A stretch of DNA of 36,858 bases from Actinomycetes bacterium (GCA_046086025.1 JBJSWT010000046.1:1-36858), one strand, 5' to 3'; counted from the stretch's first letter, positions 23,369-28,130 are shown. Notes: generated by a model from the letters alone, not told the origin. Program-made: numbers and translations.

Positions 23369-23914
23369 TTAGTCAACGACTTCTGTGATTCTTTTAATTC
23401 TTGCGTCTGTGAATAAGTCGTATTCGTCTGTACTTCTGGTAGAAAATTCAGTCACGATAGCACCTTCAGGTCCTGCTTGAAACCAGTGTTTGGTGTCTGG
23501 ATAAATAGTGTGTTGTTCGCCTGGGTGTAATACTTTTTCATGCCAAACTGTGTAAATATTTTTTTCAATTTCATGTGGATTAGCTTTTGGATTAGGAGTT
23601 TTTTCTCCTTCAACATATAAATAGACGATTCCTTTACGGCAGCGAAAAGTTTCTTCTTTACCAGGATTTCCACTTACCGATACGTGTCTATGTTCAGGAC
23701 AAACTTGAAATGGGGTCATCACGATTTCTTTAGCACAAACTCTTTCGGTATTTACATAAACTAGTAATTGAATACCTATTTTTTCTAAATTGGATAAACC
23801 AAAGTCAGAAACTTCAATTTTATTTTTTTCTTCAGCAGTTAAAACTATTCCAGCACTTTTAAATTCATTAAAAGCCCATTCTTGTTTTTCTTGAATAACT
23901 TTCTTTTCAAGCAT
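23369..23914 (-). CDS. D-lyxose/D-mannose ketol-isomerase family (YdaE-like cupin)
   Basis: DFGL, CAKE, CPEHRH, GKEETFR, HWFQAG and EFST motifs. Confidence 0.88.
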
Positions 23915-24165
23915 TAAATAGTTTCACCTTCATTACCTACATAAGCAACTAAGTCTCCAGTATTTAGTACAGTTCCTGGTTCAGCCACGATTTTTAAAAG
24001 TATTCCTTCTTCAGGAGATTCAACATCTACTTGGGCTTTATCTGTTTCTACTACCAATAAAGGTTCAGCAATACTTACTTTGTCGCCAATTTGTTTATGC
24101 CACAAAATAATTTCCATTTCGTCTGCTGTTTGTCCTAATGCTGGTAGGCGAATTTCATTTGCCAT
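23914..24165 (-). CDS. Stand-alone lipoyl-domain protein (83 aa)
   Basis: IRLPALGQT...[13 protein letters not shown]. It has a clean stop overlapping the next ATG and no E3-binding or acyltransferase domain. Confidence 0.9.
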
Positions 24166-25197
24166 TTACTTTAACTCCATCTTGTGTAGTTGTCTTATTT
24201 TTTCTTTAATTCTTTCAATACTTGGGACTACTGTTTGTTCCAATACTGGAGTAACTGGTAGAGGTACATCATAGGCAGCAATTCTTTGTACTGGTGCTTT
24301 TAGTTTGGAGAAACAGTTTTGTGAAATTAAGGCAGCAACTTCAGCTCCCCAGCCACCTGTAAAAGTATCCTCGTGGGCTATTAAAGCTTTACCTGTTTTA
24401 TTTACTGACTCATAAATAGTTTTGGTGTCTAGGGGAAGTAAAGAAACTGGATCTATAACTTCACATTCGATTCCTTCAATTTTAAGTTCTTCTGCAGCTG
24501 CAAGACATCTGTATAAAGTTAAATGAGTTGAAATTATTGTCAGAGAATTTCCATCTCTTTTTTTCAGTGCTTTTCCAATGGGAAATAAATACTCTTCTTC
24601 AGGAACTTCAGCAGTTAAATCCATACCACCTGCAGATTCTCTACCTTTACTTCCATAAAGCAACTTATGTTCAAAGACAATTACTGGATCATCATCTCTG
24701 ATGGCACTTTTCATGATGCCTTTTGCAACATATGCATCAGAAGGGCAAACTACTTTTAAACCAGGAACATGTATGAAATAACTTTCTGGAGATTGACCAT
24801 GTTGGGCACCTCTATTAGCAGTGCCAACAGGGCAGCGAAGGGTCAAAGGTACTTTTAATTTTCCACCCGACATATATCTCATCTTTGCTGCTTGGTTAAC
24901 AATTTCATCCATACATTCAAAAATAAAATCTGAATATTGTAAATCTGGAATAGGTCTCATTCCCATTAATGCAGCACCCACAGATGTTCCAATAATTGCT
25001 TTTTCACTAATTGGGGTATCAATAATTCTTTCGTGGCCAAATTTTTCAGGTAATCCTAAATAAACTCCAAAAGCACCACCAAAACCACCAGGAATTCCAA
25101 TATCTTCACCAATGAGAAATACATTTTCATCTCTTTGCATTTCTTCTGCAATTGCTTCTCTTATTGCTTCACCAATTCCAATTCTTCGTGTGGTCAT
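24166..25197 (-). CDS. ThDP-dependent dehydrogenase E1 beta subunit (AcoB/PdhB-like)
   Basis: GEDI, DTPISE, NQAAK, AQH.QS, PGLKVV and FEHK motifs. Confidence 0.92.
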   Translation of the reverse strand: MTTRRIGIGEAIREAIAEEMQRDENVFLIGEDIGIPGGFGGAFGVYLGLPEKFGHERIIDTPISEKAIIGTSVGAALMGMRPIPDLQYSDFIFECMDEIVNQAAKMRYMSGGKLKVPLTLRCPVGTANRGAQHGQSPESYFIHVPGLKVVCPSDAYVAKGIMKSAIRDDDPVIVFEHKLLYGSKGRESAGGMDLTAEVPEEEYLFPIGKALKKRDGNSLTIISTHLTLYRCLAAAEELKIEGIECEVIDPVSLLPLDTKTIYESVNKTGKALIAHEDTFTGGWGAEVAALISQNCFSKLKAPVQRIAAYDVPLPVTPVLEQTVVPSIERIKEKIRQLHKMELK

Positions 25198-26213
25198 TAT
25201 TTTTGAACCTCAGTTGGTGAACTCATGTCTGAGGCATACGCATCAATAAAGGCATCTTCAGCTTTTGGAAATGGTGATTGTTGCGCAAATACCACTGCAT
25301 CATCAATTTCTTCTTGAATATTCTTAACAATTAATGCAAAAGCTTCATTATCAATTAAGTTATTTTCGATAAGGGAATCTTTCATCCGATCTATGGGATC
25401 AAGTGTTCTCCAGTAGTCTTCCTCTTCTTTAGTTCTATATTTTTTAGCGTCACCTCTGCTGTGACCTGCAAAGCGATATGTTTTAGCTTCAATCAAGATC
25501 GGTCCTGAACCATTTGCAATGGCATCTCTTGCTTCTTTCACCGCTAAATAAACTTCAACCACATTCATGCCATCAACAATTTTTGAAGTCATGCCATAAC
25601 TACCTACTCTGTCAGCCACATTTTCCACAAGAGTGGTTTTGTTATAAGCAGTTGAGGCACCGTAAATATTGTTTTCGCACACATAAATAATTGGTAATTT
25701 TTGAATTGCTGCAAGATTTAATCCCTCATGAAACGCACCTTCATTTGTGGCACCTTCACCAAAAAAACATGCAGCAACTTGTTTAGTGTTTTTCATTTTG
25801 AAAGCTAAACCAACTCCAGTAACAATGCTTACTCCACCTGCCACAATTGCAATTGCTGGAAGCATTCCAACTTCAGGATCACCCAGATGCATGGATCCAC
25901 CTTTTCCTTTACAGCATCCAGTTTCTTTGCCATAAAGTTCTGCCATTGCAGAACGCATCGAAACACCTTTTGCGATGGCGTGTCCATGTGGTCGATGAGT
26001 TGAAGTAATCCAATCTGTTTTATTTAATGCTGTGCAAACACCAACAGCAACTGCTTCTTGGCCTTGGTATTGATGAATTGTTCCAGGAAGTTCACCTTTT
26101 AAAAATAATTGATAAACTTTATCTTCAAATTTTCTAAGTCTTATAACGTCTGTGAAAAGAGAAATTAATAATTCTTTGTCTAAATTATTTAAATTAATGG
26201 ATCTTTCAACCAT
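25197..26213 (-). CDS. ThDP-dependent dehydrogenase E1 alpha subunit (AcoA/PdhA-like)
   Basis: GQEA, STHRPHGH, GKGGSMH, GEG...ENN ThDP motif and TYRFAGHS. Confidence 0.92.
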   Translation of the reverse strand: MVERSINLNNLDKELLISLFTDVIRLRKFEDKVYQLFLKGELPGTIHQYQGQEAVAVGVCTALNKTDWITSTHRPHGHAIAKGVSMRSAMAELYGKETGCCKGKGGSMHLGDPEVGMLPAIAIVAGGVSIVTGVGLAFKMKNTKQVAACFFGEGATNEGAFHEGLNLAAIQKLPIIYVCENNIYGASTAYNKTTLVENVADRVGSYGMTSKIVDGMNVVEVYLAVKEARDAIANGSGPILIEAKTYRFAGHSRGDAKKYRTKEEEDYWRTLDPIDRMKDSLIENNLIDNEAFALIVKNIQEEIDDAVVFAQQSPFPKAEDAFIDAYASDMSSPTEVQK

Positions 26214-27109: not shown

Positions 27110-27110
27110 A

Positions 27111-28094
27111 TCAATTAATAACTTTCAACTTTTGCATTTCTACTTGAGCTTTTGATCTACTAAAAAGGGTTGTGTTACAGCCTAATCCTTGGCAAACAGA
27201 TGCTCCTAAGACTGCTCCAAATTTTAAAGATTCAGTTAAAGGCCAAGATTCACTTATTCCTATAGCCATACCTGCAGTAAAAGCATCTCCTGCACCTGAA
27301 CCGTCAACAAAATCAATTTCGTAAGGTTCTATTCGAAAAAATTCTTTTGAATCTCTATATATGACGCCATTAGTTCCACAAGTAATTGCAGCAGCATTTA
27401 CACCCCAATCTAGAAAACATTTAGATTGCTCTTGGGGATTTTCAATTCCAGTAAGAACTTCTGCTTCGTCATCATTGGGAAAGAAATAATCTACATATGG
27501 TAGGACATCTTGAACTTTTTCAACTAGTTTAGTTTCATCACTTGAAATCGCGATATCTAAAATAATTGTGTAATTTTGTTTCTTTAAATTTTTTAGCAAT
27601 TGAGCTAATTCCTTTGATTCAATCTTAGGCATCAATAAATATCCACCAAGAATAAAGATTTTAGAATCGTTTGTGAATAAGTAATTATTTATTCCACTTT
27701 CTAAATTAGCTACATTAAAATCTGCATTTGCTCCAAAATAATGGATATATCTACGATCTTGATTTTGAACAGGAATAATTATTGTTTGTGAAGTGGAAGA
27801 ATTTTGAGATTTAAAAATTGCATTTGTATTGATGTGCTCATTTATTAAAGAATCAATTAAATTTTTTCCCATGGAATCATTTCCAACCATGCCGATGATT
27901 CCTGTTTTTTTGCCTAAACGAGAAAGTGCAATTGCGGTATTAGCAGCACAACCTCCAACTTGATGAATTGGTTCACCCATTTTTAAAAGCTCACCTTCGT
28001 GAGGCAGTCGAGATAAAGGTGGTAAAAAAATGTCAGAAACAATAATTCCGGCACAAATAATTTCTAGATTTTTTTGGCCAGAATCTGATTGCAT
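27111..28094 (-). CDS. PfkB family carbohydrate kinase
   Basis: GGCAANTA, FFPNDDEA and DGSGAGDAF motifs. The track TTG start at 28130 coincides with the -35 box, so ATG 28094 is preferred. Confidence 0.9.
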   Translation of the reverse strand: MQSDSGQKNLEIICAGIIVSDIFLPPLSRLPHEGELLKMGEPIHQVGGCAANTAIALSRLGKKTGIIGMVGNDSMGKNLIDSLINEHINTNAIFKSQNSSTSQTIIIPVQNQDRRYIHYFGANADFNVANLESGINNYLFTNDSKIFILGGYLLMPKIESKELAQLLKNLKKQNYTIILDIAISSDETKLVEKVQDVLPYVDYFFPNDDEAEVLTGIENPQEQSKCFLDWGVNAAAITCGTNGVIYRDSKEFFRIEPYEIDFVDGSGAGDAFTAGMAIGISESWPLTESLKFGAVLGASVCQGLGCNTTLFSRSKAQVEMQKLKVIN

Positions 28095-28130
28095 TTCATC
28101 ACTATAGAAGTTTTTAACAAGTAAGGTCAA
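28095..28130 (-). promoter_or_regulatory. Leaderless sigma-A promoter of the six-gene sugar operon
   Basis: On the minus strand: TTGACC-N18-TATAGT-N6-ATG. Confidence 0.7.

Follow-up and report, generated by a model that had tools for sequence, protein, structure and literature searches.

A conserved gene module of sugar kinase, class II aldolase homologue and E1/lipoyl proteins in a freshwater actinobacterium and its possible role in a ThDP-dependent sugar cleavage

Introduction

Acetoin dehydrogenase (AcoA/AcoB as E1, AcoC as E2 and AcoL as E3) and the heterotetrameric pyruvate dehydrogenase (PDH) share an E1 of alpha and beta subunits, with a GEG...ENN motif and two catalytic His residues; the lipoyl domain paired with this E1 has a TDK motif. 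Routes that proceed through ketose 1-phosphates, such as the sulfo-EMP variants with SqiA and the YdjH/YdjI system of E. coli, have an isomerase, a PfkB kinase and a class II aldolase in the operon and no E1/lipoyl system. Phosphoketolase and transketolase remove a C2 unit from ketose phosphates in a ThDP-dependent manner, with phosphate or an aldose as the acceptor. The H protein of glycine cleavage (GcvH) is a small stand-alone lipoylated carrier that serves separate enzymes. In L-rhamnose catabolism, RhaEW combines a rhamnulose-1-phosphate aldolase and a lactaldehyde dehydrogenase in one bifunctional protein, as described in passages of PMC3870299.

The operon considered here belongs to a freshwater actinobacterium with a 1.3-Mb genome and lies in a window of 36,858 nucleotides (the whole stretch of DNA that was analysed). 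It resembles acetoin dehydrogenase and PDH in E1 alpha/beta architecture, in both catalytic His residues and the GEG...ENN motif, and in the TDK lipoyl domain. In contrast to these systems, its E1 sits in an operon with a sugar kinase and an isomerase and is strictly coupled to an aldolase homologue, hereafter X; E1 beta carries Asp in place of Glu, and E1 alpha has altered cofactor-loop residues and an additional Arg. The three enzyme families of the ketose 1-phosphate routes are all represented, but X has no equivalents of Asp82 and His83 and the isomerase is not of the same family as the sulfoquinovose (SQ) isomerases. Likeness to phosphoketolase and transketolase would consist, on the reading proposed below, in the removal of C2 from a ketose phosphate, whereas the E1 is of the 2-oxo acid dehydrogenase alpha/beta type with an unrelated subunit organisation, and its acceptor would be a lipoyl arm. 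The lipoyl protein, unlike GcvH, is an E2-type domain by sequence (Biotin_lipoyl; similarity to residues 1-83 of E2 proteins of relatives). The L-rhamnose route differs from the window in having the aldolase fusion, an FGGY rather than a PfkB kinase, and a rhamnose isomerase rather than one of the D-lyxose type. A full-text literature search returned no description of this gene set, and the chemistry of the module has apparently never been described before.

Operon structure and genomic context

Six co-directional ORFs occupy the minus strand from 23,369 to 28,094 (28,130 if the kinase starts at TTG), with junctions of 1, -1, -1, 0 and -1 nt, which recovers the tight packing reported in a first-pass annotation of this DNA. 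A promoter had also been placed there, and the top-scoring promoter-like site within 17,400-28,400 indeed lies directly upstream of the kinase gene (28,101-28,130, minus strand; TTGACC-18 nt-TATAGT, 10 of 12 matches, putative). As its -10 box stops 6 nt short of ATG 28,094, TTG 28,130 is more likely a -35 box than a start codon. The same spacing fits a leaderless mRNA beginning at ATG 28,094, which is plausible.

In agreement with the earlier annotation, Pfam searches found no transporter, regulator, E2 catalytic domain or E3 within the operon, and profile scores identify its flanks as punA (NF006054, 308 bits) and guaB1 (841 bits). The 50 nt between the operon and punA hold no terminator-like site on the minus strand. 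Downstream, punA, a gene for a PGM-type mutase, deoC and aldh have the same orientation, and the operon transcript may therefore extend further. A nucleoside-derived or rare pentose had been suggested as substrate from this position, but such a neighbourhood occurs in only 2 of 80 loci and is lineage-specific.

The genome encodes elsewhere a class I fructose-bisphosphate aldolase (2IQT, 384 bits), PFK, AceE fragments, E2, Lpd and LipB/LplA, and the six genes are therefore not needed for central metabolism. The single Lpd and its E2 are found on other contigs, the housekeeping lpd-E2 pair being on contig C123.

Conservation of the module

The gene order kinase, X, E1 alpha, E1 beta and lipoyl protein recurs in Actinomycetota, Dormibacterota, Chloroflexota, Latescibacterota and others, and the E1 clade occurs beside X in at least seven phyla. 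All six loci whose E1 alpha is 58-64% identical hold the kinase and X in exactly this order, and a kinase homologue is present in none of the remaining 74 E1 alpha loci. Among 80 loci centred on X, E1 is found in 68, a kinase homologue in 70, a lipoyl domain in 61 and the isomerase in 49. The six families thus behave as one conserved unit across phyla, and the concern that the set might not be conserved elsewhere can be set aside. The module is patchily distributed and would be a self-contained catabolic unit.

A remodelled class II aldolase homologue

X (26,213-27,109, minus strand) is a remodelled homologue of class II fructose-bisphosphate aldolases, matched over its full length by the Pfam model F_bP_aldolase (PF01116, 222 bits). 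It scores below every NCBIfam equivalog and subfamily cut-off (best 207.6 versus 343.05), and its solved relatives include YdjI and the SFP aldolases 8Q57 and 8Q58. In place of the HxDH motif of class II aldolases X has LLNETH, where Asn87-Glu88 align to the Asp-His of 3Q94, 7NCC, 7NC7 and 1GVF. Asp82 of class II SFP aldolases is the acid/base that contacts a sugar hydroxyl and His83 the first metal ligand, according to passages of PMC10665668. X thus has neither the catalytic Asp nor the first metal-binding His, and the Asn-Glu (NE) motif that replaces them is found in 80 of 80 X loci. The aldolase had been called altered before, and the alignments and the family consensus bear this out.

Much of the remaining site is kept. 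His184, His212, Asn234, Thr215 and Thr237 of X are the equivalents of His180, His208, Asn230, Ser211 and Thr233, residues whose roles are taken from solved class II SFP aldolases (PMC10665668, in part). Across the X family, His184, His212, Asn234 and a VEAE motif at the position of Glu134 are at least 90% conserved. By alignment, the C1-phosphate pocket formed by the side chains of Ser211 and Thr233 is conserved as Thr215 and Thr237. Nearby, the Gly that follows His180 is changed to Leu and the equivalent of Asp232 to Gly. This residue pattern would be consistent with a Glu/His/His metal site next to a retained phosphate pocket.

A distinct E1 clade and its lipoyl carrier

E1 alpha (25,197-26,213, minus strand; E1_dh, 274 bits) and E1 beta (24,166-25,197, minus strand; Transket_pyr, 146 bits, and Transketolase_C, 119 bits) together hold the complete domain set of a heterotetrameric 2-oxo acid/acetoin E1. 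E1 alpha is present in a single copy in the genome, has PDH E1 alpha as its closest solved structure and reaches 352.6 on the PDH E1 alpha model TIGR03182, below the equivalog cut-off of 393.85. E1 beta scores 332.5 bits on PRK09212, the NCBI subfamily for PDH E1 beta, and lies above its cut-off of 321, an observation that speaks against a new type of cleavage.

The association with X is tight. An NE-type X lies within 9 kb in 57 of 126 distinct E1 alpha loci, and at 55% identity or more every E1 alpha has one nearby except those of two loci, L043, in which X is frameshifted, and L044. Mapped onto the E1 alpha tree, the X label changes 4 times against a mean of 42 in shuffled labels, and none of 500 shuffles was as low. 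Substitutions specific to this clade are F45T, L48Q, I50Q, G119P, N121I and GHSRGD in E1 alpha (52 clade versus 67 outgroup sequences), and E85D together with a 10-aa insertion in E1 beta (48 versus 57). Asp85 is found in 100% of the 48 clade sequences and Glu in 72% of the 57 outgroup sequences; Glu also occupies this column in 1IK6 and 1UM9. The conserved Glu of E1 beta presumably pairs with N1' of the ThDP pyrimidine. The clade consensus keeps GHSRGD with the alpha His, GAQHGQ with the beta His, and the ThDP-Mg motif GEG...ENN. A catalytic role of beta His128 is described in part of PMC2663715. Directly after the catalytic His-Ser of E1 alpha stands a clade-invariant Arg that could hold a phosphate group; in E1 beta, an Arg close to the catalytic His is not diagnostic, since BCKDH-type E1 beta structures have it too. 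Where the earlier annotation had asked if the E1 groups with ordinary PDH or acetoin enzymes, it falls into a clade of its own that is tied to X and has active-site substitutions.

The free-standing lipoyl-domain protein (23,914-24,165, minus strand; 83 aa, Biotin_lipoyl 62.6 bits) has the lipoyl-lysine motif ETDKA, and TDK is present in 49 of 49 lipoyl domains of the clusters. It aligns only to residues 1-83, the N-terminal domain, of a Jiangella E2 and shares 35-37% identity with the lipoyl domains of housekeeping E2. Beside the E1, the window encodes only this domain, without an E2 acyltransferase core or E3, and an E3 gene likewise did not turn up in the examined clusters. The lack of an E2 core had been presented as a trait of the system, but among 51 core loci a full lipoyl-PSBD-catalytic E2, with its E3-binding domain as in acetoin dehydrogenase and PDH, is encoded in 27. 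In contrast to those systems, E2 is reduced to lipoyl-only or lipoyl plus PSBD forms in 20, and the other 4 loci lie at contig ends. As full E2 proteins are found in so many core loci, the free carrier is a derived truncation.

Kinase and isomerase

The PfkB-family sugar kinase (27,111-28,094, minus strand; Pfam PfkB, 171 bits) has 327 aa from ATG 28,094 or 339 aa (27,111-28,130) from the alternative start TTG 28,130. It stays below all NCBIfam equivalog cut-offs, the best being ribokinase (142.6 versus 299.65), and its closest solved relative is E. coli YdjH (3H49, 105.7 bits). Based on this weak likeness and the retention of the phosphate pocket in X, phosphorylation would most likely take place at C1.

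The YdaE-type cupin (23,369-23,914, minus strand; Pfam Lyx_isomer, 23 bits) is predicted to be a D-lyxose/D-mannose (aldose-ketose) isomerase from its close likeness to characterised enzymes. It is about 60% identical to D-lyxose isomerases, and its alignments to the solved enzymes 7NZO (E 1.7e-66, 227 bits) and 2Y0O (E 7e-64, 218 bits) keep the metal-motif stretches CPEHRH and HWFQAG. In the core loci the isomerase slot is filled by this short type in 37 of 51 and by a long PF07385 type in 5. Two predicted non-orthologous types of D-lyxose isomerase occupy one slot, which is counted in favour of a module for manno- or lyxo-configured sugars.

Proposed pathway and alternatives

We give an even chance to the reading that the module serves the catabolism of a manno-/lyxo-configured sugar and ends in a new ThDP/lipoyl-dependent C-C cleavage that replaces or supplements an aldolase split. 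From the observed gene content, conservation and residue changes we infer the substrate, the order of steps, the products and the role of X. The cupin isomerase would convert an aldose of the D-mannose or D-lyxose type to the 2-ketose, which the PfkB kinase would phosphorylate, most likely at C1. X would then bind the ketose 1-phosphate through its phosphate pocket and Glu/His/His metal site and, lacking the Asp-His pair found in true class II aldolases, would act on a metal-bound enediolate rather than carry out a standard retro-aldol split. The dedicated E1 alpha/beta would cut adjacent to the carbonyl and load a C2 acyl group reductively on its own lipoyl domain; in this genome, the housekeeping lpd-E2 pair would unload and reoxidise the free carrier. 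Perhaps X removes the C1 phosphate by elimination, and E1 would split the resulting 1-deoxy-2,3-diulose like a pyruvate analogue into acetyl-lipoyl and an aldonic acid, glycerate from a pentose or erythronate from a hexose. This is the sub-mechanism we prefer, although taken by itself it is rather doubtful. In streamlined genomes the housekeeping E2/E3 would accordingly receive both electrons and the acetyl group by way of the free lipoyl protein. If true, soil and freshwater bacteria would widely share an unrecognised sugar-breaking route, in which a phosphate-eliminating lyase that arose from a class II aldolase scaffold is paired with a PDH-derived E1, and acetyl-CoA would be obtained straight from sugar C1-C2, bypassing glycolysis.

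Alternatively, X could be a working aldolase with a Glu/His/His metal site that splits the ketose 1-phosphate into DHAP and glyceraldehyde or glycolaldehyde, with E1/E2 oxidising a small C2/C3 product (pyruvate, hydroxypyruvate or a hydroxy-aldehyde) to acyl-CoA. Isomerase-kinase-aldolase triads with a canonical Asp-His aldolase do exist in Clostridia (loci L011, L013 and L014, and partially L003), X has an intact phosphate pocket and retains two His ligands, and the nearest solved relative of E1 alpha is that of PDH. In addition, X without E1 is found in polyol/ketose clusters with two kinases, where an aldolase would be the natural final step. We consider this reading somewhat unlikely, because every X locus has other residues in place of the defining Asp and His of class II catalysis, two aldolases would be implied in 24 of 51 core loci, and the six genes include no enzyme that would make a 2-oxo acid from the aldehyde. 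If pyruvate were handled, the strict association of the E1 clade with X and the changes in the E1 active site would also go unexplained. The scheme of the first-pass annotation, in which E1 performs the donor half of a transketolase-like reaction on a ketose or ketose phosphate to yield a shortened aldose and glycolyl-lipoyl (acetyl if the C1 phosphate leaves the ThDP-bound fragment), has a parallel in the chemistry of acetoin dehydrogenase E1 and would suit a distinct, always sugar-linked E1 clade whose invariant Arg could hold phosphate. It is nevertheless improbable, as it gives no necessary role to X, the most tightly linked partner of E1, and glycolyl-CoA would have no obvious fate in so small a genome.

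It is very unlikely that E1 alpha/beta and the lipoyl protein form a standard dehydrogenase for pyruvate or acetoin that sits in a sugar operon and shares no substrate directly with the other genes. The scores of E1 beta and E1 alpha on PDH models point in this direction, as do loci of Acetobacterium, which we take to be aco operons, with an E1 alpha 44-45% identical. Yet E1 alpha remains below its equivalog cut-off, the clade is found only beside X in all of its phyla and is altered at cofactor and active-site positions, the genome already has AceE fragments and housekeeping E2/E3, and acetoin or butanediol genes were not found nearby. More remote still, to the point of being highly improbable, is a variant of sulfo-EMP-like sulfoglycolysis of SQ, in which E1 would take a sulfonated C3 product, for example sulfopyruvate, as its substrate. 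The isomerase, PfkB kinase and PF01116 aldolase mirror the sulfo-EMP variants in passages of PMC10665668, the solved relatives of X include SFP aldolases, the extra Arg of E1 could bind a sulfonate, and SQ is abundant in fresh water. Against this, the SQ isomerase families named in that part of PMC10665668 (PF07221 and PF02952) are absent from the operon, whose isomerase is instead close to D-lyxose isomerases; Pfam searches of the operon found no SQ isomerase, sulfoquinovosidase or SLA reductase/dehydrogenase family, and the annotated neighbours include no sulfoquinovosidase or sulfonate exporter. Nanopelagicales are not mentioned in passages of a stable-isotope survey of SQ users.

Neighbourhoods of other loci

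NE-type X also occurs without E1 in 12 of 80 loci, all with the Asn-Glu motif and at least 3 of them near contig ends, an observation that counts against the proposed new cleavage. Their neighbours are genes for mannitol dehydrogenase, Zn-ADH, PfkB and FGGY kinases, and in these settings an aldolase or an epimerase would be more at home than an enzyme that makes reactive diketones. A RhaEW-like aldolase-II/SDR fusion in 20 of 51 core loci, usually together with a sugar-phosphate-type (SorC) regulator, and a stand-alone aldolase-II gene in 4 of 51 are left unexplained by the minimal scheme. Besides the fusion, SorC regulators and GH38 or GH2 mannosidase-like genes are recurrent neighbours of the module.

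Organization and surroundings of the operon

Where the first-pass annotation had described a six-gene operon, six minus-strand ORFs were found. They encode a PfkB kinase (27111-28094/28130; 171 bits), a homologue of class II fructose-bisphosphate aldolases (PF01116; 26213-27109; 222 bits) that is called X here, the ThDP-dependent subunits E1 alpha (25197-26213; E1_dh, 274 bits) and E1 beta (24166-25197; Transket_pyr 146 bits, Transketolase_C 119 bits) of a 2-oxo acid dehydrogenase-type enzyme, an 83-aa lipoyl protein (23914-24165; Biotin_lipoyl, 63 bits) and a cupin isomerase (23369-23914). 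The isomerase scores only 23 bits on Lyx_isomer and strongly matches two solved D-lyxose isomerases, 7NZO (E 1.7e-66) and 2Y0O (E 7e-64). Junctions between the six genes measure 1, -1, -1, 0 and -1 nt. The -10 box of the highest-scoring promoter-like site of the region (TTGACC-18-TATAGT, 28130-28101) ends six bases 5' of the ATG at 28094, so that the kinase probably starts there, and a leaderless transcript of the operon is plausible. The 50 nt separating the operon from punA showed no terminator-like site on the minus strand, and beyond punA the same strand carries genes for a PGM-type mutase, DeoC and an aldehyde dehydrogenase, so that the transcript may extend past the isomerase into the punA side.

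The wider window around the operon forms an island of nucleoside catabolism, where punA and guaB1 are joined by genes for a cytidine deaminase, a xanthine/uracil permease, a Bmp-type ABC transporter and two nucleoside phosphorylases. Between 7108 and 23318 the cytidine deaminase is accompanied by a PNP/UDP-family phosphorylase, an amidohydrolase, an SDR, a pyrimidine-nucleoside phosphorylase and a four-gene Bmp/PnrA-type ABC transporter, with aldehyde dehydrogenase, deoC, PGM-type mutase and punA forming the minus-strand part. At 17614-19895, two ORFs overlap by 1 nt. The first encodes a full-length aldehyde dehydrogenase (478 aa); the second, of 281 aa, matches the Aldedh family over the family's first half only and may represent a truncated paralogue or a duplicated gene that has broken down. 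The assembly comprises 1.31 Mb (estimated completeness 93%, G+C ~35%), and related records are labelled Nanopelagicales or Actinomycetes. The stretch was found in 20 DNA runs from eight freshwater, aquatic or wastewater studies, and no RNA run is listed among the sequencing runs that contain it.

Conservation and distribution of the module

Relatives were sought in a species-representative genome collection with three queries, namely the isomerase, E1 alpha and an alignment of X. The isomerase query returned 21 loci. L001 (97% identity) and L002, a Nanopelagicales MAG (46-85% identity), have all six genes; in the clostridial loci L011, L013, L014 and, in part, L003, the set is limited to a triad of kinase, isomerase and aldolase. 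Directly upstream of the L014 triad, which has a canonical aldolase, lies a GH88 unsaturated glucuronyl hydrolase gene (5909-6964); this neighbour hints that the triad acts on a different substrate. Among the best 80 of 561 E1 alpha relatives, six loci at 58-64% identity (Jiangella, Handelsmanbacteria, Thermoleophilia, Latescibacterota and two Actinomycetes MAGs) all share the gene order kinase, X, E1 alpha, E1 beta, lipoyl. None of the remaining 74 has a kinase homologue, and a single one, L062, has an aldolase, which is of the canonical type.

For the X alignment, the best 80 of 319 relatives were kept; E1 is present at 68 of these loci, the kinase at 70, the isomerase at 49, a lipoyl domain at 61 and an E2 (lipoyl acyltransferase) catalytic domain at 35. 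Three of the 12 loci without E1 (L137, L197 and L201) have X near a contig end. Genes of high-GC loci were called by a GC3 filter together with stop-to-stop ORFs, with possible errors in start codons and in some neighbours. Because some antisense ORFs were merged by single-linkage clustering, only Pfam-annotated clusters were used.

The co-occurrence check named in the first-pass annotation was run, and the kinase-X-E1 alpha-E1 beta-lipoyl set was found to recur in other genomes across at least seven phyla. The 51 distinct core loci comprise 26 from Actinomycetota, 12 from Dormibacterota, four from Chloroflexota, three from Latescibacterota, one each from Handelsmanbacteria, Rhodothermota and Pseudomonadota, and three that are unlabelled. 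Closer to the window, X (E ≤1e-60) occurs in only 3 of 121 sampled genomes of the same order, the window's genome included, and in one of three other genomes of the genus, which marks the module as accessory and patchy. Public protein data hold 606 X relatives at E ≤1e-40. In L043, a long-read MAG, the isomerase, kinase and X match only piecewise (~5587-8002), which suggests frameshifts or assembly indels in the record.

X is a remodelled aldolase homologue

In X, Asn87-Glu88 aligns opposite the Asp-His of the HxDH motif in 3Q94, 7NCC, 7NC7 and 1GVF. Asn-Glu occupies this position at 80/80 X loci (best 80 of 319), and Asp-His is kept in the clostridial triads, L012 and L062. In the structures of a class II sulfofructose-phosphate aldolase, the source describes a metal bound by His83, His180 and His208 with Glu134 at a buried site, Asp82 and Asn230 holding the C3 hydroxyl, and phosphate held by Ser211, Thr233 and backbone amides (PMC10665668). 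According to the alignment, X retains equivalents of His180, His208, Glu134, Asn230, Ser211 (as Thr) and Thr233, and has lost Asp82 and His83. The Gly after His180 is changed to Leu and Asp232 to Gly. New in X are a conserved insertion that includes WL and, at the C terminus, an H...GSH motif. Given the retained metal and phosphate residues, metal-assisted binding of a 2-ketose phosphorylated at C1 has probably been preserved in X. As judged from sequence, it is without the residue pair that defines class II aldol cleavage, and Glu88 may serve instead as a metal ligand or as a base. The names that databases give to X-type proteins are the generic ones, class II fructose-bisphosphate or ketose-bisphosphate aldolase, and an ESM Atlas search returned only generic aldolase clusters.

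E1 forms a distinct clade

E1 alpha sequences pooled over all loci gave 126 distinct sequences, 57 of which have an X with the Asn-Glu motif within 9 kb, one a canonical aldolase and 68 neither. The exceptions at ≥55% identity are the E1 alpha of L044 and that of L043, where X carries a frameshift; all others are X-linked. Mapped on a maximum-likelihood tree (127 rows), the X-linked label requires four changes, two of them forced by starred branches; shuffled labels required 42 on average, and 0/500 shuffles were as low as four. The test shows that X-linked labels cluster, which is not a count of independent events since kin share labels.

Residues were compared between clade and outgroup in 52 versus 67 alpha and 48 versus 57 beta sequences. 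In alpha, PGF.HLY.G is invariably PGT.HQ.QG in the clade, and a Gly-Ala-Asn-Gly segment has become Pro-Ala-Ile-Ala. In G. stearothermophilus E1p, a turn containing I142 and I144 of alpha is described as hydrogen-bonding the ThDP pyrimidine (PMC2663715). From motif position, we infer that the changed Pro-Ala-Ile-Ala segment corresponds to this turn. Further clade-invariant features of alpha are NQG changed to NEG and a GHSRGD motif with Arg right after His-Ser. In beta, the clade invariably has Asp in place of a conserved outgroup Glu, which is also Glu in 1IK6 and 1UM9 and which we take to pair with N1' of ThDP. A change of Ser to Gly after the catalytic His and a 10-residue insertion are likewise invariant. 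Beta Arg129, four residues before the catalytic His, was considered as a clade-specific phosphate binder and dropped because 1IK6 and 1UM9 have it too.

Lipoyl carrier and housekeeping enzymes

A free lipoyl carrier with no E2 core had been noted in the first pass. This holds for the window but not as a trait of the system, as 27 of the 51 core loci have a full E2; in Jiangella and Handelsmanbacteria, the lipoyl domain is the N-terminal part of a normal E2 with E3-binding and catalytic domains. The lipoyl domain stands alone or with a short tail in 20 core loci, including 9 of the 12 from Dormibacterota as well as those of streamlined freshwater Actinomycetota, and the remaining four are cut by contig ends. 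On this distribution, the free lipoyl carrier is best read as a derived state. The TDK lysine motif is present in 49/49 cluster lipoyl domains, and the window's lipoyl domain is only 35-37% identical to those of the housekeeping E2. Most simply, E1 would need its cognate lipoyl domain, whose unloading and reoxidation a general E2 and E3 (Lpd) could carry out in trans. That the E2 core was lost repeatedly and the lipoyl domain retained amounts to a natural experiment on the extent to which lipoyl carriers can act in trans. Intermediate truncations were seen in L040 (4594-5064) and L155 (11980-12543), where the lipoyl domain is followed by ~70-100 more residues and no acyltransferase domain; that of L040 aligns to the Jiangella E2 up to residue 140.

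The genome has one copy of E1 alpha of this type, one LipB/LplA-type enzyme and one Lpd; on contig C123, the Lpd gene immediately precedes that of an E2 that has two lipoyl domains. An E2 and a Kgd-type protein are also encoded. Of a housekeeping AceE-type pyruvate dehydrogenase (PDH) E1, fragments at the ends of two contigs (C18:14-496 and C19:733-1086) were all that was seen. With these fragments and with E2 and Lpd present, E1 was rejected as the cell's sole PDH. X, the only PF01116 gene of the genome, was likewise rejected as a housekeeping glycolytic aldolase, since X has an altered catalytic pair and the genome encodes PFK and a class I fructose-bisphosphate aldolase (384 bits to 2IQT), which leaves glycolysis with no need for X. 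One account of complete acI genomes reports the class I enzyme in one tribe and suggests a single E2 shared by PDH and ODH in acI, as in Corynebacterium (PMC5301498).

Proposed pathway and alternatives

We view the module as a dehydrogenase system of the 2-oxo acid or acetoin type that was recruited to sugar catabolism along with a non-canonical homologue of class II aldolases. About even chances are given to the following order: the isomerase would act first and the kinase would follow, X would act on a ketose 1-phosphate, E1 would then cleave ThDP-dependently with reductive acylation of the lipoyl domain, and in this genome the acyl group would be handed on to the housekeeping E2 and E3. In the detail that we prefer, itself unlikely to be right as it stands, X would eliminate phosphate to yield a 1-deoxy-2,3-diulose. 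Phosphate elimination has precedents in methylglyoxal synthase and in RuBisCO, where beta-elimination occurs as a side reaction. Such a step would leave the PDH-type hydroxyethyl-ThDP chemistry of E1 unchanged, and it would explain why the kinase, a phosphate-binding and aldol-incompetent X, and E1 are always found together.

X could instead be an atypical aldolase, with E1/E2 processing a small downstream product; this main alternative is somewhat doubtful given the altered catalytic pair. Bearing on it from the other side, loci without E1 warn that X can work without this partner; X genes there adjoin mannitol-dehydrogenase-family, Zn-ADH, PfkB, FGGY, ARMT1-like phosphatase and ABC-transporter genes, neighbours that indicate ketohexose chemistry, and X paralogues sometimes stand in tandem. 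A transketolase-like reaction by E1, as the first-pass annotation had it, appears quite improbable. An ordinary PDH or acetoin dehydrogenase is very unlikely, with E1 alpha scoring under the NCBI PDH equivalog cut-off and its clade linked to X; in favour of this reading, E1 beta scores just over a subfamily cut-off. A sulfoquinovose route, to which the sulfofructose-phosphate aldolase likeness of X might point, is hardly credible.

The first-pass remark that no described pathway was known for the six genes agrees with a full-text literature search (subscription journals and supplements outside its scope), which found no description of the set. The diketone route, if true, would be a new pathway. 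If E1 acts on a sugar-derived ketol or diketone, 2-oxo acid or acetoin dehydrogenase chemistry would reach into carbohydrate catabolism, and the class II aldolase family would include a non-aldolase function. Genome-based metabolic models would then need correcting, because databases call X a class II fructose-bisphosphate aldolase and the E1 genes score on NCBI PDH models.

Substrate

The suggestion of a nucleoside-derived substrate did not hold up, as nucleoside genes adjoin the module at only 2 of the 80 X loci, both of them close relatives; punA, the mutase and deoC were rejected as a conserved link on the same count. In a third relative, L129 (79-83% identity for X and E1 alpha), the module is instead surrounded by nuo and housekeeping genes. 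Among the 51 core loci, a SorC-type sugar-binding regulator is found in 24, a ~650-aa aldolase-II + SDR fusion resembling RhaEW in 20 (Jiangella versus a Dormibacterota MAG, 60% identity), a stand-alone aldolase-II gene in four, a GH38 alpha-mannosidase-like gene in six and a GH2 beta-mannosidase-like gene in two. In addition, one slot is filled by two non-orthologous D-lyxose/D-mannose isomerase types. Together, the regulators, the fusion, the mannosidase-like genes and the isomerase types point to mannose or lyxose-type sugars freed from mannosides, rather than nucleoside pentoses, as the probable substrate.

Tandem pairs of X with the Asn-Glu motif and no E1 were seen in L163 (3641-5591) and L183 (2061-4059), beside ABC permeases and PfkB and FGGY kinases. 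URO-D family proteins recur beside X genes in sugar clusters, at 943-2274 in L199 and at 9895-11064 and 13007-14155 in L206.
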